A DNA stretch of 32,000 nt from Acaryochloris thomasi RCC1774 (lineage in GTDB: Bacteria; Cyanobacteriota; Cyanobacteriia; Thermosynechococcales; Thermosynechococcaceae), in the NCBI RefSeq assembly GCF_003231495.1, contig NZ_PQWO01000013.1, positions 30,001 to 62,000 of the forward strand, in the 5' to 3' direction. The notes below the pieces were generated by a model that searched no databases, was not told the origin of the DNA, and worked only from the letters and a program-made list of their open reading frames with translations. Position 1 is the stretch's first letter. Each line of letters opens with the position of its first letter. Shown here piece after piece: positions 1 through 30,965 of the stretch. The translations under genes were made by a program, and so were the position numbers.

Positions 1-150
1 GCACCGTTCAGTAAACCCTCAAGGTTTCTCTTAAAGTCTCTCTTTGGCAATGATGCCTAAAGGCGGGGGACATTGTTACAGTCAGAAATCTTGGGGGATT
101 ACTCCAATGCTGGCATCATAGAAGATGGTCTCAAGTTAGCTGGCGAGAGG

Positions 151-11747: not shown

Positions 11748-13640
11748 ATGCCCGACCCCATTCTGGAGGTTAGCAACCTACAAGTACAGTTCAAAGCTGA
11801 GACCCAGACTGTCAAAGCAGTAGACGATGTCTCCTTTGTGCTTCATCGGGGCCAAACCCTAGGAATTGTGGGGGAATCTGGCTCAGGCAAATCAGTAACG
11901 TCTTTATCGCTCATGCGTTTGGTGCCCAGCCCACCCGGTGAAATTGTCAACGGTGACATCTGGTTTCACGGTCGCACAAAGAATGACGAGGCTCCCATCA
12001 ACCTGCTGCAGCTCCCACTTCGGGATATGCAAAAATATCGCGGCTCCCAGATCTCAATGATCTTTCAGGAACCCATGAGTTCCCTCAATCCCGTCTATAC
12101 CTGTGGATTTCAGCTCATTGAAGCCATCCTTCTTCATAAAGATATTTCTAAAGTAGAAGCCCGTCGCAGTGCCGTTGCCCTCCTGCAAGAAGTAAAGCTG
12201 ATCCCCAGCGATGCAGAACTGAAGCAGCTAGCAATACAGTCAAGCAGCACAGACATCAATGAAGCCGAGATTCAGCAGCAAATTAATCAGCAGAAACGCT
12301 CGTTTTTAGACCGCTATCCCCATGAACTGTCTGGCGGACAGATTCAACGGGTGATGATTGCGATGGCCATCTCCTGTGACCCCGCAATTTTGATCGCCGA
12401 TGAACCCACGACGGCACTGGACGTGACGGTACAGGCCACAATTTTAGACCTGCTGCGCGAACTGCGAGACAGCAGAGGCATGTCAATTATCTTCGTCACC
12501 CACGACTTGGGCATCATTGCTGAAATCGCCGATAGTGTCGCCGTCATGTTCCGGGGCAAAATTGTCGAAGTTGGCTCTGTTCAGCAAATTTTTTCTGAAC
12601 CTCAGCACCCTTACACCCAAGGTCTTCTGGCCTGTCGCCCCCAGCCCCACAAACGTCTTGAGTATCTGCCGACTATCAGTGCCTTCATGGCTGCCGCCGA
12701 ACAGGCAGAAACAGCAGAGAAAGATTTCAATCGCTCCGCCGCGTCCCCTCTGACCATCGCAGAAATTCCTGAGTCAGCCATCCAGCAGCGGCTCACGGAC
12801 TTGAAAAAGCACGAACCTTTAATGATGGTCCGAGACCTCCAGGTTTTTTTCCCGGTCAGGGGAATGTTTGGGCAGACCGCCCGCTACGTTACCGCTGTCA
12901 ACGGCGTCACCTTCAACGTCTATCCGGGTGAAACACTGGGCTTAGTTGGAGAGTCTGGCTGCGGCAAAACAACGCTAGGTCGCACATTGGTGCGCTTGAT
13001 CGAACCCACCAGCGGCTACATCAATTTTGAGGGGAACAACATCACCGCGCTGCGCGGGAAACCGCTGCGAACCCTGCGGCAAAATCTGCAGATCATTTTT
13101 CAAGACCCCAACAGCTCCCTCGACCCCCGCATGAGTATTGGGGCCGCAATTATGGAACCGATGAAAATTGCCGGTGGGGTACCTACTGATAACGGCTGGT
13201 CAAAAAATCGTAAAGAAATGCGCGATCGCATCGCCTACTTACTCGAACGGGTTGATCTCAACCCAGACGCCATGAATCGCTATCCCCACGAATTCTCTGG
13301 GGGCCAGCGGCAGCGCGTCTGTATCGCCCGTGCCCTAGCCCTCAACCCCAGATTTATCATCTGCGATGAATCGGTCTCGGCCCTAGATGTTTCAGTCCAG
13401 GCCCAGGTGCTCAATCTACTCAAAGAGCTGCAGAAAGAATTTTCGTTAACGTATATTTTTATTTCCCATGATCTGAGCGTTGTTAAATTTATGAGCGATC
13501 GCATCATGGTTATGAATCGCGGAAAGATCGAAGAAATTGGCCCTGCCGAAGCGGTCTATCAGGCTCCTGAGAAGGAATATACCAAGCAGCTGATTGCCTC
13601 TATCCCCACTGGAATTCCGCCAGAAGCCCTCTCTGCTTAA
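11748..13640 (+). CDS. ABC transporter ATP-binding protein with duplicated ATPase domains (Dpp/Opp D-F fusion type)
   Basis: Two complete NBDs: GESGSGKS / LSGGQIQRV / [12 protein letters not shown], and GESGCGKTT / FSGGQRQRV / [12 protein letters not shown]. Oligopeptide-type C-terminal motifs (HPYTQGLL) are present. Confidence 0.9.
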
Positions 13641-16054: not shown

Positions 16055-16975
16055 ATGGCTAAGAAAATGGGTCTATTTCGATTTCTTCAATACTTCAGAG
16101 GGCGGTGGTCGACTCAACACTCAGGATTCACGCTGATTGAGAAAATGATCGTTGTCGCAGTGGTAGGAATCTTAGGGGCAGTGACGGCTCCTAACCTTTC
16201 AAAGATGCTGGATCGGGTCAAGCTTGATCAGGCGACCAAAGAGGTGAGAAGTGCCCTTGACGAGACCCAGCGAGAGGCCATTCGAGGCAATAAAAGCTGC
16301 ATGGTTACGCTTAATTTAGTTGAATCTAAGGTGACAGGAAACTGTTTACAGGCTGGAAATCGTGATCTTCCAGAGAGAATTAGTCTAGCCACGAATATGG
16401 TCAGTAACCTAGATGTCGGCCTACCCAGCGGCACGGCTGAAACGCTCCCTCCCGCAACTGAGATTGCATCCACGGTGACTGATGTTGACACTGGACTGGG
16501 CCTGTATCGCGATCGCCCCACAAAAGTGGCTGTTGCGACAGGACCGGTTGCACCAAAAGCATCCATGACCATTCAAATCATTAGTCAAGCTCCTGCCTGT
16601 TCTCAGACCGCTGGGCAACAAAGCAGCAACAACTGCGGGAATAAGTCAAATAAGGCCCAACAAGGGCAATCTAACCCTTCACCGTCGCCTTCACCTAGCA
16701 GTCCCCCGCCAGGGGTATCTGTTACACCCATTCCCATTCAGTATGGGGCTTTGGGAACGCCTAATTTTGCGGTGGTTAGCGAGCTATCGATACCGGCAGA
16801 TCCGACCGGTAAAATTGTTTTCTCTTTGGCCAACAATGAGAGTGCGGAAAGGAAGTGTATCGCTATTTCTAATACCTTAGGTCTCACGCGAATTGGTTCC
16901 TACCGTGGTGATCTAGAGCCTTCTAAGATTACAGATGAGGGGGCTTGTACTGCCACAAGCTGGACAACACAATGA
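16055..16975 (+). CDS. Prepilin-type protein, FimT/GspH-like minor pilin with Pro/Ser-rich linker and extra C-terminal domain
   Basis: G|FTLIEKMIVVAVVGILGAV, then a GspH/FimT-like segment (LDRVKLDQATKEVRSALDETQREAIRGNK), then the NPSPSPSPSSPPPG linker and about 90 further residues. Confidence 0.72.
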   Translation: MAKKMGLFRFLQYFRGRWSTQHSGFTLIEKMIVVAVVGILGAVTAPNLSKMLDRVKLDQATKEVRSALDETQREAIRGNKSCMVTLNLVESKVTGNCLQAGNRDLPERISLATNMVSNLDVGLPSGTAETLPPATEIASTVTDVDTGLGLYRDRPTKVAVATGPVAPKASMTIQIISQAPACSQTAGQQSSNNCGNKSNKAQQGQSNPSPSPSPSSPPPGVSVTPIPIQYGALGTPNFAVVSELSIPADPTGKIVFSLANNESAERKCIAISNTLGLTRIGSYRGDLEPSKITDEGACTATSWTTQ

Positions 16976-18015
16976 GCCAGAACGCCCGCTTCAGATGGCT
17001 TCTGCTCCGGAGAGTTGCCGCTCAGCTCAGCCGGTCTGAGCAGCAGGGATTCACGTTAATAGAATTGCTGGTTGCCTCAGCCATCACGACCATTGTTTTA
17101 ACAGTTGTTTTTATTGGTGTGCTCACGGCCATTAACGGCAATCGCCTTGCTGAAGCTAGAACTAGGCGGCGCATTGATCTCAGCCGGGCTTTTGATTTTA
17201 TCAGTAATGAGATTCGGATGGCGAACCGCATTAATCAAACAGCGACAACGGCTCTGGGGGGCTCAGTAACCTTAGAAGATGTGGTGACTAGTTCTGGTTT
17301 AACGATGGCAGAGCTGGGAAATCCCGACGCCATTGTTCTTTATCTAGAGATTCCGATCAGTGAGCCGGGGCCAGCAATTTGTCCAGCGGGTAGCCCCAAT
17401 GCAGGTGCTGCTCGTGCGCAAGTTGATCGGATTGTCTATGATGTTCGACCCAGCACTAACGGCTGGCTACCGCCGCGTGCAGTTCATCGACATGGCCGGA
17501 TTCCTAGGCTGGATGGCAGTATCGACCCCTGTAGCAGACCTGTCTCTAGCGATACGTTGGTGGATGCGATCGCAAATCAAGCCACTCCCCCTGAGTGCGG
17601 TACATCAGCGCGCCCCGGTCAGCTATCGGGAGCTTCGGGTTTCTATGCCTGCGTCAATGGGGCTGAAGTCGATCTCAATTTCAAAAGTGACGTGACGAAT
17701 TTAGAGGTTCACCGTCTTAGCAGCAAAGCGGCCTCTCGGGTGAGCAATAATATTGCGATTCCAGTGTTGAAGCGCGACGGGCGAACAGGCGATACTCTGG
17801 ACCTCTCCTGGACCTGGACCGGGGCTAGCGCAGGCGTCACCTACCGAGTCTTTCAAGCCGTCAACGAGACCCAAACTGAAGTTGCCAGTGAGACAAATCA
17901 GGCTGCTTCAGTGCCTCTAACAGGCAATATTGGGGAGAATCATTGTTACACAGTAATTGCGACCTTCGGGAGCCTAGCCAGTTTAGAGAGCGACCCACTG
18001 TGTGAAATCAAGTAG
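16972..18015 (+). CDS. Prepilin-type protein, PilW-like minor pilin with C-terminal FN3/Ig-like extension
   Basis: The ATG at 16972 overlaps the upstream TGA (ATGA). Motifs seen: QQG|FTLIELLVASAITTIVL and the PilW-like RRRIDLSRAFDFISNEIRMANRI. The C-terminal LDLSWTW..GVTYRVFQ..CYTVIA has a beta-sandwich pattern. Confidence 0.7.
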   Translation: MSQNARFRWLLLRRVAAQLSRSEQQGFTLIELLVASAITTIVLTVVFIGVLTAINGNRLAEARTRRRIDLSRAFDFISNEIRMANRINQTATTALGGSVTLEDVVTSSGLTMAELGNPDAIVLYLEIPISEPGPAICPAGSPNAGAARAQVDRIVYDVRPSTNGWLPPRAVHRHGRIPRLDGSIDPCSRPVSSDTLVDAIANQATPPECGTSARPGQLSGASGFYACVNGAEVDLNFKSDVTNLEVHRLSSKAASRVSNNIAIPVLKRDGRTGDTLDLSWTWTGASAGVTYRVFQAVNETQTEVASETNQAASVPLTGNIGENHCYTVIATFGSLASLESDPLCEIK

Positions 18016-24871: not shown

Positions 24872-26059
24872 ATGACTCTTTGTATCAATCCTAACTGTCC
24901 CAATCCTCATAACATCGATGCTCATCTGTTCTGTCAGGGCTGTGGCTCTGAACTGCTGCTGGAGGGACGCTATCGGGTGACCAAGCAGCGCGGCAAAGGC
25001 GGCTTTGGTTCTACCTATGAAGTGCGCTTGCGTCAGGCCGAGACTAAGATTCTAAAGGTGCTGACGGATAATTTGCCCAAGCATGTGGAATTATTCCAAC
25101 GCGAAGCGTTCCTGTTAAGTCAGCTTCATCATCCCGGCATTCCAGCCGTTGAAGATGGGGCTTATTTTACCTATTACGCTAAAAACCGCTCCGAACCCCT
25201 GCACTGCATCATCATGGAGCATGTTGTGGGCTTGGATCTACAGGACTATCTTAGGCAACGTGGACAACCGATTGAGCAGAGATTAGCACTGCAGTGGCTG
25301 ATACAGGTTGTAGAAATCTTGCAAGTTTTGCATCAGAAGCATGTTCTGCACCGCGATATCAAGCCTTCTAACATTATGCTCAAGGCAGAAGGGAGCTTGG
25401 CGCTGGTTGATTTTGGCACGGCTCGTTCCGTCACCAATATCAGCGGTGATCCCAGTGGTCAGGCGGGTACCCGCGTCGTGTCATCGTTTTATACTCCGTC
25501 GGAGCAGATGTATGGTCAGGCTGTTGCTCAGTCAGATTTTTTCGCCCTCGGGCGTACCTTTGTTTATCTGGTGACGGCGACGGAGCTGGGCAAGCTGTAT
25601 GACAGCACGACCGATACTCTCAAATGGCACCAAGCTGCAACTGACCTAACACCAGAGTTTACAGACTTTCTTGACTATTTGATGATGCCAGCGGTGAATC
25701 AGCGCCCGACAACGACGGCGGAAATCCTGCAGCAGCTTCAACAATTACAAACGAGCTCCTCTTCTATACCGACGGTTCCTCTGGCAGATGCCCCGGCGGC
25801 TTTTGCTGAGGAGAAGGTTGATGAAGATGCTGCAATCCCACCTTCGCGGCAGATCCAGACTCCTAGAAAGCTAGATGAACAATTTGTAGAGCGATGCCAG
25901 AAAGAACTCGCTGAGTTTATAGGGCCGATTGCGGCAATCGTATGTCAGCAAGCGCTGGCGACCGATCCTACCGCCTCTGAAAGAGATTTTATCGAGGTTC
26001 TCTCTCGCCACATCAATAAGCACCAAGACGCTGACAACTTTAAACGGACCGTTAAATAA
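24872..26059 (+). CDS. Hanks-type Ser/Thr protein kinase with N-terminal 4-Cys zinc-ribbon prefix
   Basis: C4-x4-C9-x11-C21-x2-C24, then GKGGFGSTY, the Lys in KILKVL, HRDIKPSNIM and DFGTA. No TM segment. The C-terminal ~60-aa helical module reads FVERCQKELAEFIGPIAAIVCQQAL. Confidence 0.88.
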   Translation: MTLCINPNCPNPHNIDAHLFCQGCGSELLLEGRYRVTKQRGKGGFGSTYEVRLRQAETKILKVLTDNLPKHVELFQREAFLLSQLHHPGIPAVEDGAYFTYYAKNRSEPLHCIIMEHVVGLDLQDYLRQRGQPIEQRLALQWLIQVVEILQVLHQKHVLHRDIKPSNIMLKAEGSLALVDFGTARSVTNISGDPSGQAGTRVVSSFYTPSEQMYGQAVAQSDFFALGRTFVYLVTATELGKLYDSTTDTLKWHQAATDLTPEFTDFLDYLMMPAVNQRPTTTAEILQQLQQLQTSSSSIPTVPLADAPAAFAEEKVDEDAAIPPSRQIQTPRKLDEQFVERCQKELAEFIGPIAAIVCQQALATDPTASERDFIEVLSRHINKHQDADNFKRTVK

Positions 26060-26130
26060 GGCTGAAGGTCGCCGGAACGGATGCAATCGCTGTAGCCTAA
26101 AACATTGATGATTGCGATCGCACCGGGACA

Positions 26131-28746
26131 ATGTCGAACATAGCTGCAAGACTGGAAGTCTATCAGGGGAGCGTTTTAGTTCAAACGATTCACCTCAGTC
26201 AGGGATCTGTAACGCTGGGGCGAGCGCCGGACAACACGGTGCCACTCAATGATGATCTCACGGTTTCCCGCCGTCACGCTCAAGTTGTTTGGTCTACCGA
26301 TCACTATGTTCTGACCGATCTGTCGAGTTCGGTCGGCACCTCTGTTAACGATGTCAAGCTTGTCCCCCATCAACCTCAAGCGTTGGTGAATTGCGATCGC
26401 ATCTCCATCGGCACCTTTGAGCTGGTCTTTCAAGAATCCGCCGTCGGGCCAAAGCAAGCAGCCCCCAACCAAACCCTCAACCTCAAAGGTCGTCAGACTC
26501 TAAGTCTGGGGCGCGACCCGCTCAACGACATGATCATTGATCATCCCGCTTCCTCTCGCTTCCATGCCCAGATTCAAAAAGCGAAGGGAGACTATCTACT
26601 CGAAGATCTGAGCTCTACGAACGGAACTTTCGTAAACGGCAAACCCCTCTCAGAGCGGCGCGTTTTAAAGGTGGGAGATGTGATCCGCATCGGTCCGACT
26701 CATCTAACATTCAATGTTGATGAGACTCTCTTCAAGGTAAATGAGGCTGGAAATCTGCGCTTAGACGCCATCGACCTCAATAAAAAAATCAGCAAAGGAC
26801 TCAATTTACTAAACAATATTTCCCTTTCGATTCAGGCCCGCGAATTTGTTGCGATCGCAGGGGTGAGCGGCGGCGGTAAATCAACGCTGCTCGACGCCCT
26901 CAACGGATTTCGCCCCGCCACCAGTGGCTATGTACTCGTCAACGGGACTGACCTCTATAAAAACTTCAACGCCTACCGAAACGAAATCGGCTACGTGCCC
27001 CAGCGGGACATTGTTCATATGGAGTTGACAGTGGAGCAGGCCCTTGATTTCGCAGGCAAACTAAGGATGCCTGCCGACACCACCCGGGCCGAACGCAAGC
27101 AGCGCGTTGATGAAGTGCTCGTTGACCTAAACTTGAGCGCGCGCCGATCGGTACCGATTAAATCTCTGAGTGGCGGACAGCTAAAGCGCGTCTCCATCGG
27201 CGTAGAGCTGCTGACCAAGCCCAGTTTATTCTTCTTAGACGAGGCAACGTCGGGTTTAGACCCAGGCACTGAAACAGAGCTGATGCAGCTTTTGCGTAAG
27301 CTGGCCGATCAGGGCCGCACTATTTTGCTGATTACCCACGCTACTGAAAACGTCACGCTTTGTGATCAGGTTGTTTTTATGGCGCGAGGGGGTAATCTTG
27401 CTTACTTTGGCCCCCCCCAGGAAGCCACCCAGCACTTTGAAGTGGAGCGGTTTAACCAAATTTATCGGCGGGTTGAACATGAGCGCTCTCCAGAAGACTG
27501 GCATCAGACCTTTCAAAACTCACCGCAGCACCAGCGATATGTGGTCGAGCGCCAGCAGAACCTAGAACAGAGGAGCAAACCCCAGGGCAGGCGACTACGA
27601 CAGCAGGCACCTGGCGCAAATGTTAAGCGGGTTTCGGCTTGGAGACAGTTCCTAATCTTGTCTCAGCGGAATCTAGCGATTTTAGGACGCGATCGCATCA
27701 ATCTGATGCTGATGCTGGCGGTGGCCCCACTGATCGGTCTCTTAGATTTGATGACCTGGCGCAAGCCCTTATTCAGTACCGCAGACGGTACCCCCAGCCT
27801 GACGGTAACGATGCTGTTTACCACCGTGTTGTTCGCCGTCATGGTCGGGAGCTTGCCTGCTATGCGCGAAATTGTCAAAGAAATTGATATCTATAAACGA
27901 GAGCGCATTATTGGGCTGCAGATTATCCCCTACGTCCTTTCTAAAGTTTGGCTGAGCGTTGTTTTGGCGCTTTACCAGGCCGGTGTCTTTTTGCTATTCA
28001 AGGTAATTGCCGTCTCTGACTTTCCGACAGCTCCCAATATTTTGCTTGGGATGTACGTGACGCTAGTGCTGGCCTTCATTGGTGGAATGCTCATGGGGCT
28101 ATTCGGCTCAGCAATAGCTCCTAATCCGGGGGTTGCACCACTGCTAGTTCTCATCTTTTTGCTGCCGCAGATTATCTTTGGCGGTGGCGTTTTTCCTTTA
28201 GATACCTTTGGTCCCTCAGGGCAAGTGTTCAATCAATTCGCATTAACAAAATGGCCCTTTGAAGTCTTGGTGACTCTCTCTGATATGGGGCAAGATATTG
28301 CCAAAGACCCCTGCTGGATTCAGGTCATCAACGAAGAAAAAAAACTTGCTGATTTTGACGATCAGGCCAAGCAAGACTGTCCCTGCATGGGCGAGAGTAT
28401 TTTCAAGGACTGTGAGTTCCCCGGCATTCGTACCTCCTATAAGCCGGTTGTCGATGACCCCGAACCCACTGAGCCAACGAAACCAACGGGCACAGATGCC
28501 CGCTCGGCTTCTGTCCAGGACCAGTATGAGGCAGATCTCGATCAGTACCAAGAAGACTTCACGGAATGGACGCTGGAGCGTGAGGGAGCCATTAGCACGG
28601 CAGAAGGTAAGGTAGACGGCATTGCCAAGAAGTTTAGTCAGACTTTTGACGTTAATGTCCGTCAACACCTGATTATCTTTAGCAGTTTTCTGATGAGCAT
28701 TCTGGGACTCATTTTAGCGGTACAGAAAATCAAAGATGTCCTATAG
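26131..28746 (+). CDS. FHA-FHA-ABC transporter (ATPase fused to ABC-2/ABCG-like permease)
   Basis: Two FHA domains (LGRAPDN..SRRHAQV..GTSVN and LGRDPLND..SRFHAQI..STNGTFVNG). NBD motifs: Walker A GVSGGGKST, signature LSGGQLKRV, Walker B LFFLDEATSGLD. About 6 TM helices follow. Confidence 0.9.
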   Translation: MSNIAARLEVYQGSVLVQTIHLSQGSVTLGRAPDNTVPLNDDLTVSRRHAQVVWSTDHYVLTDLSSSVGTSVNDVKLVPHQPQALVNCDRISIGTFELVFQESAVGPKQAAPNQTLNLKGRQTLSLGRDPLNDMIIDHPASSRFHAQIQKAKGDYLLEDLSSTNGTFVNGKPLSERRVLKVGDVIRIGPTHLTFNVDETLFKVNEAGNLRLDAIDLNKKISKGLNLLNNISLSIQAREFVAIAGVSGGGKSTLLDALNGFRPATSGYVLVNGTDLYKNFNAYRNEIGYVPQRDIVHMELTVEQALDFAGKLRMPADTTRAERKQRVDEVLVDLNLSARRSVPIKSLSGGQLKRVSIGVELLTKPSLFFLDEATSGLDPGTETELMQLLRKLADQGRTILLITHATENVTLCDQVVFMARGGNLAYFGPPQEATQHFEVERFNQIYRRVEHERSPEDWHQTFQNSPQHQRYVVERQQNLEQRSKPQGRRLRQQAPGANVKRVSAWRQFLILSQRNLAILGRDRINLMLMLAVAPLIGLLDLMTWRKPLFSTADGTPSLTVTMLFTTVLFAVMVGSLPAMREIVKEIDIYKRERIIGLQIIPYVLSKVWLSVVLALYQAGVFLLFKVIAVSDFPTAPNILLGMYVTLVLAFIGGMLMGLFGSAIAPNPGVAPLLVLIFLLPQIIFGGGVFPLDTFGPSGQVFNQFALTKWPFEVLVTLSDMGQDIAKDPCWIQVINEEKKLADFDDQAKQDCPCMGESIFKDCEFPGIRTSYKPVVDDPEPTEPTKPTGTDARSASVQDQYEADLDQYQEDFTEWTLEREGAISTAEGKVDGIAKKFSQTFDVNVRQHLIIFSSFLMSILGLILAVQKIKDVL

Positions 28747-29118: not shown

Positions 29119-30174
29119 ATGTTTAGAATCTCAGGCGAGAAGTTTAATACATTACTAAAGCAAGTCCGTCATCCCGACAAAATAATTAATGATCTTGGGA
29201 TGCGTGTTGGATATTTACTAAAACTCAAACATTTACCTTTTTTGCCATCAAGCTTAGAAGTTGAACCCATAAATAGCTGTAATTTTCGTTGTCCTCACTG
29301 CCAGGTTACCCATTGGGACAAGGAAGCTCTCAAACTCAAGATTGATAGATTTGAGGCAATTCTCAAGCAATTGCCGAAGCTAATTTGGGTCAAGCTTCAA
29401 GGCATGGGAGAACCTTTGCTCAATAGAGAGCTAATTCCCATGCTTGAGTTGGGGGAGTCTAAAAACATCAAAATGAGCCTTACGACAAATGGCTCTCTGT
29501 TGAGTGGCAAAGCAGCTCATTCGCTGGCGGATCTAACAAACACTTCCATTAACGTCAGTATTGATGGAGCATCTGCTCAAACATTTGAGCAGATAAGGGT
29601 GGGGGGCAAATTCGATGTTGTTTGCAAAAACATAAAAGAATTCATGAATTTAGTCGATCATAAAAACAAGTCGAATATCAATGCTTGGATGGTCTTGACT
29701 AAACGGAACTTTCATGAAGCAGATGATGTGGTAAAGCTTGTCAAAGAGCTAGGTCTTAAGTCGTTAACGCTTCAAATATTTATAAATGACTGGGGTAAAG
29801 ACGATCTGTCTGAATATGCTGACAGTATAAGTCTTGTTTCTGATGAAAGTTTCTCAAAGCAGCTCAATCAAGTCCTTTCTCAAGTGAAAGAAACTGCCGC
29901 AAAAGAAGATGTTGATTTAAGGGTCTTTGATGGAGACTTTTATACAGAGTCAAATATCTGCTCATGGCCGTGGAAATCCTCGTATATATGCTCCAACGGA
30001 GATGTTGTTCCCTGCTGCATGCTTGCCGACTCTGATACAGTAAAAATGGGAAATGTGTTTGAAGAAGACTTTAAAGATATTTGGAATTCAGAAAAGTACC
30101 AAGATTTTCGAGTCCGTCACATCAAGCACGATTTACCAAGCTATTGTCAGCATTGTTATACAGACGTTTCTTGA
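29119..30174 (+). CDS. Radical SAM enzyme with C-terminal SPASM/twitch-like Cys cluster
   Basis: CNFRCPHC (CX3CX2C) at aa 54-61. C-terminal CSWPWKSSYICSNGDVVPCC (CX12GX4C pattern) plus YCQHCY. AAAGAGAG lies upstream of the ATG. GC content is markedly low. Confidence 0.85.
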   Translation: MFRISGEKFNTLLKQVRHPDKIINDLGMRVGYLLKLKHLPFLPSSLEVEPINSCNFRCPHCQVTHWDKEALKLKIDRFEAILKQLPKLIWVKLQGMGEPLLNRELIPMLELGESKNIKMSLTTNGSLLSGKAAHSLADLTNTSINVSIDGASAQTFEQIRVGGKFDVVCKNIKEFMNLVDHKNKSNINAWMVLTKRNFHEADDVVKLVKELGLKSLTLQIFINDWGKDDLSEYADSISLVSDESFSKQLNQVLSQVKETAAKEDVDLRVFDGDFYTESNICSWPWKSSYICSNGDVVPCCMLADSDTVKMGNVFEEDFKDIWNSEKYQDFRVRHIKHDLPSYCQHCYTDVS

Positions 30175-30191: not shown

Positions 30192-30965
30192 TTAAGTTAG
30201 CAGCGAAAAAATAGAGTCTACTCGGTTAGCGAGCTTAGTGAGCGCGGTTTTGAGCGACTGGTAGCCCTTCAATCTCAGAATGTTAATAGCAAGGGTTCTA
30301 AAAAGTAACCAATTGAGCAAGACCTGTTCATCTTCAAGGCGATAATCATCTTCTCCAAAGACAACATCCTTGAGCCAATGGAGCCGATTTTTAATGCCCC
30401 AATGCCCCCTCACCGGCGATAGCCACTGGTGGGCACAAGCTAATGCTGAAATGAGCAAGCCATCTATCTGTAGCGTTTCGAGCGGTGTCTGCAGCACTTT
30501 AATCTCGCTACTGCCTTATTGGGTCAGTGCCTCTAGCTTCAAGGTGACGCCCACTTCGACGGCAAACAGACTCACTAGTCCCACAAACCGCTCTTTGCCA
30601 GCGGCATTCGTGAGACGTTGCCGAATGCGCTTGTCGTCAATGGAAGCAACACGATTGTCAGGGCTATCAATTGCGCCTTGAGACCCCATCCAATGCTCAA
30701 ATTGGTGGCTCAGAGCGAGAAAGTCAAGGCCCAGCATCACACGCCAAAAGGTTGAGTAGGAAGGAGCTGCGAGTTCCTTAAAGCCCAATAGTTGGCACAA
30801 TGACCGATGATGCTCTTCGACAAAGGTCTGGAGGGGACGGTAGCCATGATACCCAGCGAGTATCCCCATAATGATCAATAGCAACAGAACCCATAAGGGA
30901 TAGGACTTACCACGAGCTTTGCGAAAGTCTAGAATTTGCTTGAGTTCTGCAATCAGGCTCGACAT
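30192..30965 (-). pseudogene. ISAs1-family (H-repeat-associated) transposase remnant
   Basis: Two same-frame ORFs (30516-30965 and 30192-30497) are separated by an in-frame TAA at 30516-30518. The N-terminus matches the ISAs1 pattern (DFRKARGKSYPLWVLLLLIIMGILAG; SIDDKRIR). The C-terminus matches HWGIKNRLHWLKDVVFGEDD..AINIL. About 130 aa of DDE core are missing between ISALACAHQ and RGHWGI. Confidence 0.72.

Follow-up and report, generated by a model that had tools for sequence, protein, structure and literature searches.

A soluble Hanks-type kinase and an FHA-ABC half-transporter in Acaryochloris thomasi: an undescribed variant of the PknF-Rv1747 design

Two neighbouring genes on the same strand of the Acaryochloris thomasi RCC1774 genome, one encoding a Ser/Thr kinase and the other an ABC transporter with two FHA domains, raise the question whether they form a phospho-regulated export system and, if so, how the kinase would act on the transporter. 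The precedent for such regulation is the PknF/Rv1747 pair of Mycobacterium tuberculosis (PMC3138270, PMC7761784). There, a long intrinsically disordered region joins the FHA domains of Rv1747, and PknF phosphorylates two threonines, Thr-150 inside the disordered stretch and Thr-208 just before FHA-2 (PMC3138270, PMC7761784); envelope lipids or glycolipids have been proposed as the cargo class (PMC7761784). An earlier note on the window, the 32,000-nucleotide stretch of DNA analysed here, had drawn this comparison, and the coordinates, strand and 71-nt gap that it gave for the two reading frames were reproduced exactly (Table 1). The start codons of kinase and transporter are both backed by homologue alignments, and both genes are intact. 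No terminator-like site was detected in the 71-nt spacer, which carries a HIP1 palindrome (GCGATCGC) at positions 26114-26121. As the earlier note had supposed that no role was described in cyanobacteria, it is relevant that the literature searched contained no description of a cyanobacterial FHA-ABC transporter. The pair is genuine and represents an as yet undescribed version of a regulatory design that is already known. We estimate a probability of about 0.6 that kinase and transporter constitute a functional kinase-exporter module, which follows the PknF-Rv1747 design with different wiring.

Table 1 Features of the kinase-transporter locus. Positions are those of the window.
Feature	Residues	Position	Strand	Basis or remark
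Kinase gene, soluble Hanks-type Ser/Thr kinase		24872..26059	+	ORF, 395 aa
4-Cys prefix (C4/C9/C21/C24)	kinase 3-28	24878..24955	+	NCBIfam NF045510
Activation segment, conserved T188, T200, S204	kinase DFG180 to E211	25409..25504	+	
Ser/Thr/Pro-rich spacer, disordered, variable	kinase ~296-331	25757..25864	+	
C-terminal three-helix module, DUF8082-type	kinase ~333-394	25868..26053	+	
Spacer between kinase and transporter		26060..26130	+	71 nt
Transporter gene, FHA-FHA-NBD-TMD half-transporter		26131..28746	+	ORF, 871 aa
FHA1	transporter 6-102	26146..26436	+	beta-sandwich in AF2 model
Inter-FHA linker SAVGPKQAAPN, no Thr	transporter 103-113	26437..26469	+	
FHA2, fully canonical	transporter 114-204	26470..26742	+	
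ABC nucleotide-binding domain (NBD)	transporter ~205-475	26743..27555	+	ABC_tran 227-374, E=2.2e-28 (Pfam)
NBD-TMD connector, basic, disordered	transporter 481-499	27571..27627	+	pLDDT <50
ABC2/ABCG-type membrane domain	transporter 503-716	27637..28278	+	ABC2_membrane 505-714, E=6.5e-14 (Pfam)
TM5-TM6 loop, expanded, presumably extracytoplasmic, Cys-rich part and 46-residue helix	transporter 717-840	28279..28650	+	
C-terminal TM helix (TM6)	transporter 843-870	28657..28740	+	AF2 model and hydropathy scan

Among relatives with transporters 52-96% identical to that of A. thomasi, a kinase of the same 4Cys-Pkinase-DUF8082 build lies directly upstream on the same strand. Such pairs were found at four loci of Acaryochloris and Acaryochloridaceae (L001, L002, L009 and L054; transporter 65-66% identical), at L081-L084 (77-86%), in Lyngbya confervoides (L085; 59%) and at L087 (52%), and at L086 the kinase adjoins an A-type paralogue (52% identical to the A. 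thomasi transporter) that is followed in tandem by a B-type transporter of 60% identity. Kinase and transporter identities fall together (94/96, 79/86, 68-69/77-81, 52-57/65, 50/59 and 49/52%, respectively). The genes are separated by 80-190 nt in relatives or overlap by 4-8 nt at stop and start (8 nt in L086, 4 nt in L087). Paired loci show four different upstream contexts (TrmO, aminotransferase, PRK and others) and variable downstream genes; several cyanobacterial lineages have thus preserved the pair amid changing flanks. Kinase enrichment was assessed in an unbiased sample of 69 species-level FHA-ABC loci, where kinases accounted for 25 of 352 genes at most three positions from the FHA-ABC gene versus 7 of 378 at greater distance (odds ratio 4.1, Fisher p = 5e-4, in a test that ignores phylogenetic non-independence). 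Counted by position, kinases made up 15% of genes at -1 versus 2% at a distance of at least four genes. The pairing of kinase and transporter is more than coincidence. Three-FHA transporters of cyanobacteria and Chloroflexi are accompanied by other kinase types, an indication that the FHA-ABC family has recruited kinases more than once. Within the unbiased sample, the 4Cys-DUF8082 kinase stands upstream at just 3 of 20 two-FHA loci, and none of the 11 one-FHA loci (Nostocales) has any kinase nearby. The conserved adjacency on which the earlier note had made its proposal depend is thus real in related genomes with changing flanks, but confined to a minority of cyanobacteria.

The domain order FHA-FHA-NBD-ABC2 read from the sequence alone was borne out by Pfam profiles for FHA (two copies, E=2.3e-37), ABC_tran and ABC2_membrane, and the two FHA domains make up the N-terminal, cytoplasmic part of the transporter. 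In FHA2, G127, S142, R143, H145, N164, T166 and N169 are invariant in 51 of 51 relatives and R128 and G165 are conserved in 49; the domain matches OdhI/GarA (E=1.2e-9) and FHA-2 of Rv1747 (PDB 6cah, E=3.4e-7). FHA1 shares invariant G30, R31, S46, R47, H49 and N73 (51/51), with V68 in place of the canonical 'NG' Asn, a position occupied by D in 31 of 51 relatives. Phosphothreonine-binding residues, named earlier as a point to be checked, are therefore retained throughout FHA2 and as GR and SxxH in FHA1, which lacks the NG Asn. The NBD translation contains a Walker A (GVSGGGKST), a signature (LSGGQ) and a Walker B motif (FFLDEATSGLD), nearly all residues of which are invariant or present in at least 90% of relatives, and by these motifs the transporter is catalytically competent. 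Immediately after the NBD-TMD connector follows a K-R-[IV]-S502 motif (S502 is Ser in 49 of 51 relatives, K499 is Lys in 44), and it may be speculated that this region could be an alternative phospho-acceptor.

The AF2 model of the membrane domain comprises an elbow helix, TM1-5 and re-entrant helices. Best Foldseek matches of the transporter core were ABCG2, ABCG1 and ABCG5/G8, with E-values as low as 4.6e-19 and, within this group of best matches, target TM-scores reaching 0.76-0.82. The protein shares with these eukaryotic half-transporters an NBD placed before the TMD, an ABC2-type membrane domain with re-entrant helices and a Cys-containing TM5-TM6 loop, but differs from them in its N-terminal FHA domains, its bacterial inner-membrane setting, a loop that is far longer (about 125 residues) and a sequence identity of just 18-26%. 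The loop, probably located outside because ABCG topology would place it there, contains conserved C728, C750, C752 and C761, an F763-P764-G765 motif (F763 and G765 never vary, and at least 90% of relatives have P764) and a modelled 46-residue helix (793-838).

The kinase has a Pkinase domain at residues 34-287 (E=4.6e-30, Pfam), and its closest solved structures are the kinase domains of PknB, StkP and PknA. Invariance of K62, E78, HRD160-162, K164, N167 and DFG180-182 in 50 of 50 relatives marks it as catalytically competent. PknF is membrane-anchored, whereas a hydropathy scan detected no TM-like segment in the A. thomasi kinase, which is therefore regarded as soluble, in line with the earlier description. 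The AF2 model shows residues 186-203 of the activation segment as disordered; within the segment, all relatives have T200, followed by V/I/M at +3, and 47 of 50 have T188. T188, T200 and S204 may act as autophosphorylation and FHA-docking sites. A zinc ribbon had been proposed at the N-terminus, and the motif C4-x4-C9-x11-C21-x2-C24 is readable in the translation, its four cysteines invariant in 50 of 50 relatives. It is not novel, however, but corresponds to the curated family NF045510 ('4Cys_prefix_kin'; 37.6 bits versus a cutoff of 24), which also occurs on Pkinase-pentapeptide kinases of SpkB-like architecture at L082 and L033; zinc binding is an assumption. Judged via these SpkB-like architectures in relatives, the prefix is probably shared with SpkB, a redox-modulated Hanks kinase of Synechocystis sp. 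PCC 6803 that ends in pentapeptide repeats instead of DUF8082. By analogy with the N-terminal extension of SpkB, the prefix is likely an input site for a metal or thiol-redox signal. The Ser/Thr/Pro-rich spacer (pLDDT <50 at residues 306-331) differs in length and sequence across the homologue alignment and leads to a confident three-helix bundle at 336-394 (helices 336-364, 370-378 and 384-394, pLDDT 84-96). This module, earlier called distinct, is real but widespread: it is Pfam DUF8082 (PF26309), which precomputed annotation assigns to P0121 (94% identical) and to every close orthologue. Present in 290 representative clusters, often in 2-5 tandem copies, and carried by kinases, CHAT and nSTAND proteins, DUF8082 is a mobile three-helix module of signalling proteins.

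Could the kinase switch the transporter as PknF switches Rv1747, by phosphorylating T115 and/or T123 and so creating sites for the FHA domains of the same or another transporter molecule? The earlier note had assumed an inter-FHA linker of about 25 residues containing both threonines (in NQTLNL and RQTLSL). The position of T115 just before FHA2, with Leu at +3, indeed recalls Rv1747 Thr-208 with Met at +3 (PMC3138270), and most two-FHA relatives keep a [K/E]-T-[T/V]-hydrophobic motif in their longer linker. In the AF2 model, however, residues 104-112 are the sole low-confidence stretch between the FHA domains, and the two threonines sit in the first two strands of FHA2 (114-117 and 123-127), so that both the linker length and the linker threonines had to be abandoned; moreover, Thr is found at T115 in just 8 and at T123 in 20 of 51 relatives. 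The disordered linker of about 9-11 residues, without Thr, is the shortest in the family, in which the inter-FHA region otherwise consists either of some 45 linker residues that include the conserved Thr motif or of an additional, third FHA domain. Since the linker is this short and Thr-free, and since the motif has been deleted in the clade of the A. thomasi transporter, the multivalent linker mechanism of Rv1747 is improbable here. The analogy with the two-gene operon of M. tuberculosis thus holds for FHA-FHA-NBD-TMD in one polypeptide, for the Hanks kinase gene immediately upstream on the same strand and, by domain rather than full-length comparison, for the FHA binding residues (NG Asn of FHA1 excepted) and the match of FHA2 to 6cah, but not for the linker-phosphorylation switch; the expanded Cys-rich extracytoplasmic loop is a further difference. 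The missing NG Asn, the variation from one to three FHA domains across the family and the kinase-free one-FHA Nostocales loci would also fit FHA domains whose function does not depend on phosphorylation, such as oligomerisation or scaffolding, beside a kinase that is irrelevant to transport. This we consider very improbable, as GR and SxxH are kept in both FHA domains (R128 in 49/51) and the preservation of the FHA2 phosphothreonine contacts across 51 sequences makes phosphopeptide binding hard to avoid as an explanation.

It is also conceivable, if somewhat unlikely, that the adjacency is mainly inherited gene order, that the principal partner of the kinase lies elsewhere and that the transporter FHA domains read several kinases. 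TrmO is found upstream of the closest relatives of the A. thomasi locus as well, which indicates that part of the conservation is plain synteny. Furthermore, no FHA-ABC gene stands beside four kinase relatives of about 50% identity, one from Rippkaea PCC 8801 and three from metagenomic contigs: kinase relatives at L091 and L092 have a convergent gene for a small Tll0287-like+HAMP sensor protein, a candidate main partner, directly downstream, and at L090 the kinase adjoins an FHA-GAF-cyclase. As members of the Tll0287-like+HAMP family also lie just past the transporter at L001, L002, L009 and L084, the transporter looks as if set between two older neighbours. Against this stand the survival of the pair in four upstream contexts, the overlapping coding sequences of L086 and L087, the single 4Cys-DUF8082 type of all kinases directly upstream on the same strand, and the independent enrichment of other kinase types beside three-FHA transporters.

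For the kinase-exporter module, we propose that both genes would be co-transcribed and that the kinase would autophosphorylate its activation segment, in which T200 resembles an FHA-type ligand because it is invariant with V/I/M at +3. The canonical FHA2, possibly together with the atypical FHA1, might dock on an activation-segment phosphothreonine or, alternatively, on a phosphothreonine set by the kinase elsewhere on the transporter, and docking could alter dimerisation, clustering or the ATPase cycle of the exporter. Direct FHA-kinase docking is more probable as the switch than the linker-based mechanism. It is modelled on GarA and OdhI, the best solved relatives of FHA2, which bind with their FHA domain a phosphothreonine on, or placed by, their kinase PknB or PknG. 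GarA differs from the membrane exporter that contains FHA2 in being a small, soluble regulator of metabolism.

ABCG2, ABCG1 and ABCG5/G8 transport lipid, sterol and hydrophobic substrates. Lipid-themed genes (AsmA/DUF748-like, class-3 lipase, Lnb_N) neighbour the transporter at 5 of about 58 cyanobacterial loci, all in genomes other than that of A. thomasi. To judge from the ABCG fold and these neighbours, the A. thomasi exporter most likely carries a hydrophobic constituent of the envelope, either a lipid or a molecule linked to one, and the cargo class so proposed would resemble that of Rv1747.

The earlier note had read a kinase gene followed by a gene for a tandem-FHA ABC exporter, and both ORFs were recovered, separated by 71 nt on the same strand. 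This immediate adjacency is operon-like, and the start codons of both genes are backed by homologue alignments. The spacer carries the HIP1 palindrome GCGATCGC (26114-26121), as would be expected of cyanobacterial DNA; a promoter/terminator scan, which stayed at background level and is uninformative, revealed no terminator-like site in it. The closest database relatives of the two proteins, with 96% identity for the transporter and 94% for the kinase, are both encoded in the MAG 'Cyanobacteria bacterium P01_A01_bin.17', while second-tier relatives of the pair carry the labels Thermosynechococcaceae and Acaryochloris. Source annotations read only 'FHA domain-containing protein' or 'ABC transport system ATP-binding/permease protein'.

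Positions of the two ORFs in the window and of the structural elements of the transporter (residues).
Feature	Position	Strand	Length	Source
Kinase ORF	24872-26059	+	395 aa	
Transporter ORF	26131-28746	+	871 aa	
FHA1	residues 6-102			AF2 model
Inter-FHA low-confidence stretch (short, the only one there)	residues 104-112			AF2 model
FHA2 first strands	residues 114-117, 123-127			AF2 model
NBD	between FHA2 and basic connector			AF2 model
Disordered basic connector	residues 481-499			AF2 model
ABC2-type membrane domain	residues 503-716			AF2 model
Cys-rich region	residues 717-790			AF2 model
46-residue helix	residues 793-838			AF2 model
Final membrane helix	residues 843-870			AF2 model

The transporter carries two N-terminal FHA domains, an NBD and a TMD on one polypeptide. 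Pfam (FHA, two copies, E=2.3e-37; ABC_tran, residues 227-374, E=2.2e-28; ABC2_membrane, residues 505-714, E=6.5e-14) and the AF2 model (mean pLDDT 80.8) agreed on the order FHA-FHA-NBD-ABC2 that had been proposed from the sequence. A Foldseek search of the PDB with the model returned ABCG2, ABCG1 and ABCG5/G8 as top matches, with E-values down to 4.6e-19 and best target TM-scores of 0.76-0.82, and the protein is therefore an ABCG-like half-transporter. The position of the NBD before the ABC2-type TMD and the predicted ABCG fold are those of the ABC2 or type V class; the family model TIGR00955 scored 202 bits, which is under its cutoff. The TM5-TM6 loop is enlarged, and C728, C750, C752 and C761 are invariant. 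A local Pfam scan of the C-terminal 168 aa gave nothing useful at E<=10.

In the FHA2 domain G127, S142, H145 and N164 are invariant in all 51 aligned sequences, and R128 and G165 are kept in 49 of them. FHA2 thus has every canonical phosphothreonine-contact residue of the motif (GR, SxxH, NG) as defined in PMC1262709 and is predicted to be competent for binding. The expectation of two phosphothreonine-binding domains was only partly upheld for FHA1, in which G30, R31, S46 and H49 are invariant but the Asn of the NG pair is replaced by V68 (Asp in 31/51 relatives).

A different picture emerged for the proposed phospho-switch, in which Thr residues of a flexible inter-FHA linker (NQT115LNL and RQT123LSL) would be the targets of the kinase as in Rv1747. 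In the AF2 model both residues belong to the two beta-strands with which FHA2 begins, and their conservation is low (Thr in 8/51 relatives at position 115 and in 20/51 at position 123). The linker proper, SAVGPKQAAPN, contains no Thr, so that this mechanism fails for the protein studied here. Most relatives with two FHA domains have a linker of ~45 residues with a [K/E]-T-[T/V]-hydrophobic motif, and it is this segment that is deleted in the immediate clade of the window protein (P0001-P0004). In some other relatives a whole third FHA domain is inserted exactly at the site of the short linker. The number of FHA domains varies between one, two and three across the family (transporter alignment A1; loci L012, L017, L021-L031, L042-L078; L057-L079), with one in Nostocales and three in many Oscillatoriales, Pseudanabaenales and all Chloroflexi homologues.

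The FHA domains of Rv1747 are joined by a long disordered region. PknF phosphorylates Thr-150 inside this region and Thr-208 shortly before FHA-2, and both sites have a hydrophobic residue at +3 (PMC3138270, PMC7761784). This long phospho-acceptor linker is a defining feature of Rv1747 and is absent from the window transporter; the window pair shares the outline of PknF/Rv1747, but its kinase is of a different kind. Rv1747 could be compared by its FHA-2 fragment alone (PDB 6cah), and the match to the window FHA2 (E=3.4e-7) was no closer than those to GarA/OdhI. Actinobacterial FHA-ABC proteins occur at 43-50% identity (L038, L077, L080).

With the linker set aside, we infer that the kinase's own T200 is a better candidate ligand for the FHA domains than T115 or T123. 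Pfam places the kinase domain at residues 34-287 (Pkinase, E=4.6e-30), and the GKGGFG loop, K62, E78, H160-R-D162, K164, N167 and D180-F-G182 are invariant among 50 relatives, which gives the protein the full residue set of a predicted active Hanks-type kinase (Gly-rich loop, beta3 Lys, alphaC Glu, HRD...N and DFG). In the activation segment, T200 is invariant in all 50 relatives and followed by V, I or M at +3 in every one, and T188 is kept in 47. The AF2 model (mean pLDDT 80.8) is confident in the core and shows the activation segment as disordered (residues 186-203). A further possible regulatory site, alternative to these, is S502 of the transporter: a K-R-[IV]-S502 motif closes the basic connector just before the membrane domain (27571-27636, residues 481-502), and the position is Ser in 49/51 relatives.

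The absence of a TM anchor from the kinase, suggested earlier, was supported by a hydropathy scan, in which the transporter showed its expected membrane segments and the kinase showed none. Both accessory parts of the kinase are already catalogued in databases; a Foldseek search with the whole model matched kinase domains only and was uninformative on either part. The N-terminal C4-x4-C9-x11-C21-x2-C24 motif is present as first described, its four Cys being invariant in 50 relatives, and residues 3-28 match NCBIfam NF045510 ('4Cys_prefix_kin') with 37.6 bits (curated cutoff 24). A local Pfam scan of the N-terminal 33 aa at E<=10 gave nothing useful. In related genomes the same prefix also heads kinases with Pkinase and pentapeptide domains, which is the architecture of SpkB. 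For SpkB, a Cys-rich N-terminal extension is reported to be a thioredoxin target in redox regulation (as cited in PMC10651672). Zinc binding, assumed in the earlier note, is one possibility for the function of the 4-Cys prefix, and thiol-redox sensing is another.

The C-terminal helical module, which had been taken as distinct, is a real three-helix bundle (residues 336-394, confident in the AF2 model), preceded by a disordered, variable, Ser/Thr/Pro-rich spacer (residues 306-331), but it is not new. PF26309.1 (DUF8082) is annotated on the 94%-identical orthologue P0121, on ~115 of 120 relatives and on transporter-adjacent kinases in related loci, all in precomputed annotation, and a profile of the C-terminal region recovered all transporter-adjacent kinases. 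Going by these relatives, the C-terminus corresponds to DUF8082. Our local Pfam scan of residues 301-395 gave no match at E<=10, the PF26309 model probably being missing from the copy scanned. A phmmer search of the full library with the C-terminal 69 residues returned 290 representative clusters (proteins P0241-P0387), in which DUF8082 often occurs in 2-5 tandem copies. Its hosts include the ends of diverse kinases, some of them fused to CHAT or cyclase domains, CHAT proteases and one nSTAND1 NTPase. DUF8082 is thus a mobile signalling-associated module that is not specific to the kinase-transporter pair. A literature search on DUF8082 found nothing. DUF8082 has two near-invariant Cys, which are C342 and C358 in the window kinase.

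To follow the pair across genomes, we compared 80 loci from species-representative genomes, chosen via the transporter alignment, together with extra contigs for specific relatives. An orthologous kinase with the 4-Cys prefix and DUF8082 lies directly upstream on the same strand in Acaryochloris and other Acaryochloridaceae (L001, L002, L009, L054; transporter identity 65-66%). The same-strand upstream orthologue is also found in closer relatives (L081-L084; 77-86%), in Lyngbya confervoides (L085; 59%) and in a metagenomic lineage (L087; 52%). In a second metagenomic lineage (L086) it adjoins an A-type transporter (52% identity to the window protein), with a 60%-identical B-type paralog next in tandem. 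Identity to the window drops in parallel for kinase and transporter across these relatives, and in L086 and L087 the end of the kinase gene overlaps the beginning of the transporter gene, by 8 and 4 nt respectively. The flanks vary, with TrmO, aminotransferase, phosphoribulokinase or other genes upstream of the kinase and varying genes downstream of the transporter.

The adjacency is thus conserved in an Acaryochloris/Thermosynechococcaceae-like clade, L. confervoides and two metagenomic lineages, but only in a minority of cyanobacteria overall. In the unbiased sample the kinase was upstream in only 3/20 two-FHA loci, four two-FHA loci had a second, divergent FHA-ABC gene next door instead, and no kinase was nearby in any of 11 one-FHA loci. 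Likewise, none of four kinase relatives at ~50% identity, from Rippkaea orientalis PCC 8801 and three long metagenomic contigs, adjoins an FHA-ABC gene; one of them has an FHA-GAF-cyclase gene upstream. Two others have a ~300-aa Tll0287-like+HAMP protein as convergent downstream neighbour (L091, 7226-8113(-); L092, 7332-8255(-)), and such a gene lies just beyond the transporter in L001, L002, L009 and L084 (5538-6443(-)). This placement suggests that the kinase and a Tll0287-HAMP sensor formed an older pair, and that this pair either gained the FHA-ABC gene by insertion or lost it.

Across 69 unbiased loci, kinases were nevertheless enriched close to FHA-ABC genes, with 25 of 352 genes within three positions against 7 of 378 farther away (odds ratio 4.1, Fisher p=5e-4, a test that ignores phylogeny). 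Their share of the genes is 15% at position -1, rises above background again at +2 and +3 (11-12%), and is 2% at four or more genes away. These counts are based on a kinase-domain profile; single-sequence phmmer with the window kinase under-detected kinases, and BLAST single-linkage clustering called too many of them, as it chained in WD40, pentapeptide and TPR proteins. The type of neighbouring kinase depends on the clade: next to three-FHA cyanobacterial transporters the kinases are longer and vary in orientation, and Chloroflexi (L042, L044-L047, L050 and others) have a conserved three-gene order of a 3-FHA ABC protein, a ~340-aa protein without Pfam match and a ~780-aa Hanks kinase. Such repeated recruitment of different kinases argues that the FHA-ABC family is generally kinase-regulated. 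Downstream DapB/shikimate kinase (c39/c40) and fructose-bisphosphate aldolase (c25) genes were recurrent neighbours, and we rejected them as partners because they reflect housekeeping synteny. Further FHA proteins lie near the modules (L081, 11154-13603(-); L005/L007, 3617-4568(+); L090, 4172-5785(+)) and include 638-aa and 166-aa FHA proteins, cyclase-FHA fusions and FHA-GAF-cyclase.

The operon of L086 and L087 runs from the kinase through two FHA-ABC genes, and in L086 an AsmA-like gene comes after them. The window transporter groups with the B paralog (60% identity, versus 52% to the kinase-adjacent A), so that the window looks like a reduced version of this longer operon. FHA-ABC paralogs are commonly paired, in tandem as A then B (L086, 3295-8688; L087, 6001-11136) or divergently (L003, L005, L007, L016), and they fall into at least three paralogous subfamilies, which share 46-65% identity with the window protein. 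The pairing of distinct paralogs suggests heterodimeric half-transporters. Downstream of the window transporter lie a radical-SAM/SPASM maturase-like gene (29119-30174(+); 39% GC versus ~51% in the window) and two fragments of a DDE_Tnp_1-associated transposase (30192-30965(-)). This patch probably arrived by mobile insertion and reshaped what lies downstream of the transporter; any original partner there may have been displaced.

Nothing in the window indicates the substrate of the transporter. In diverse other cyanobacteria, recurrent neighbours of FHA-ABC transporters include ~250-aa AsmA/DUF748/YhdP-N-like proteins (L006, 10763-11464; L085, 8688-9440; L086, 8793-9563; L088, 5586-6119(-)), class-3 lipases (L006, 11533-12669(-); L017, 12380-13528; L088, 4459-5589) and Lnb_N proteins (L017, 11278-12348; L088, 3428-4459), which hints at a lipid-related function. 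A lipid role has also been proposed for Rv1747 (PMC7761784). Together with the ABCG fold, this makes an envelope lipid or lipid-linked molecule our best guess for the cargo, a thin one, as the neighbours occur in 5 of ~58 cyanobacterial loci.

These observations can be joined into one speculative scheme. The 4-Cys prefix would make the kinase a sensor of thiol-redox state (thioredoxin or photosynthetic electron flow) or of metal, direct docking of FHA on its activation-loop phosphothreonine would gate the ABCG-like exporter, and the exporter would pass an envelope lipid to an AsmA/YhdP-like bridge protein. The ancestral operon would then have comprised the kinase, FHA-ABC(A), FHA-ABC(B) and the AsmA-like gene. 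We consider this complete scheme unlikely, with a chance of roughly one in eight. If true, it would give cyanobacteria a phosphorylation-controlled route for carrying lipid from the inner membrane to the outer. To our knowledge, the movement of lipids to the outer membrane of diderms and its physiological tuning are poorly understood, especially in cyanobacteria, and cyanobacterial Hanks kinases have very few known substrates.

The window pair itself is a real variant of the PknF/Rv1747-like design, conserved well enough to merit experimental work. It is no great surprise to specialists, since clustering of FHA and kinase genes and FHA-ABC fusions have long been known. As the earlier note had supposed, our literature searches turned up no described role for the module in cyanobacteria and no published cyanobacterial FHA-ABC transporter, only mycobacterial work and generic surveys. 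The pair offers a concrete candidate kinase-substrate relationship, in which the putative input domain of the kinase relates to the redox-sensitive extension of SpkB and the transporter has a lipid-handling ABCG fold. The Rv1747 design extends beyond Actinobacteria: it is widespread among Cyanobacteria and Chloroflexi, whose versions have between one and three FHA domains. The current mycobacterial model of phase separation and clustering centres on the long disordered linker, and the window pair represents the design in a form that lacks it.

Elsewhere in the window, a 630-aa ABC protein (11748-13640(+)) with two ABC_tran domains and oligo_HPY is of the peptide-importer ATPase type and unrelated to FHA-ABC; it had clustered with the family through its NBDs only. 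Two adjacent genes at 16055-18015(+) encode proteins with an N-terminal methylation motif that are type IV pilin-like or pseudopilin proteins.
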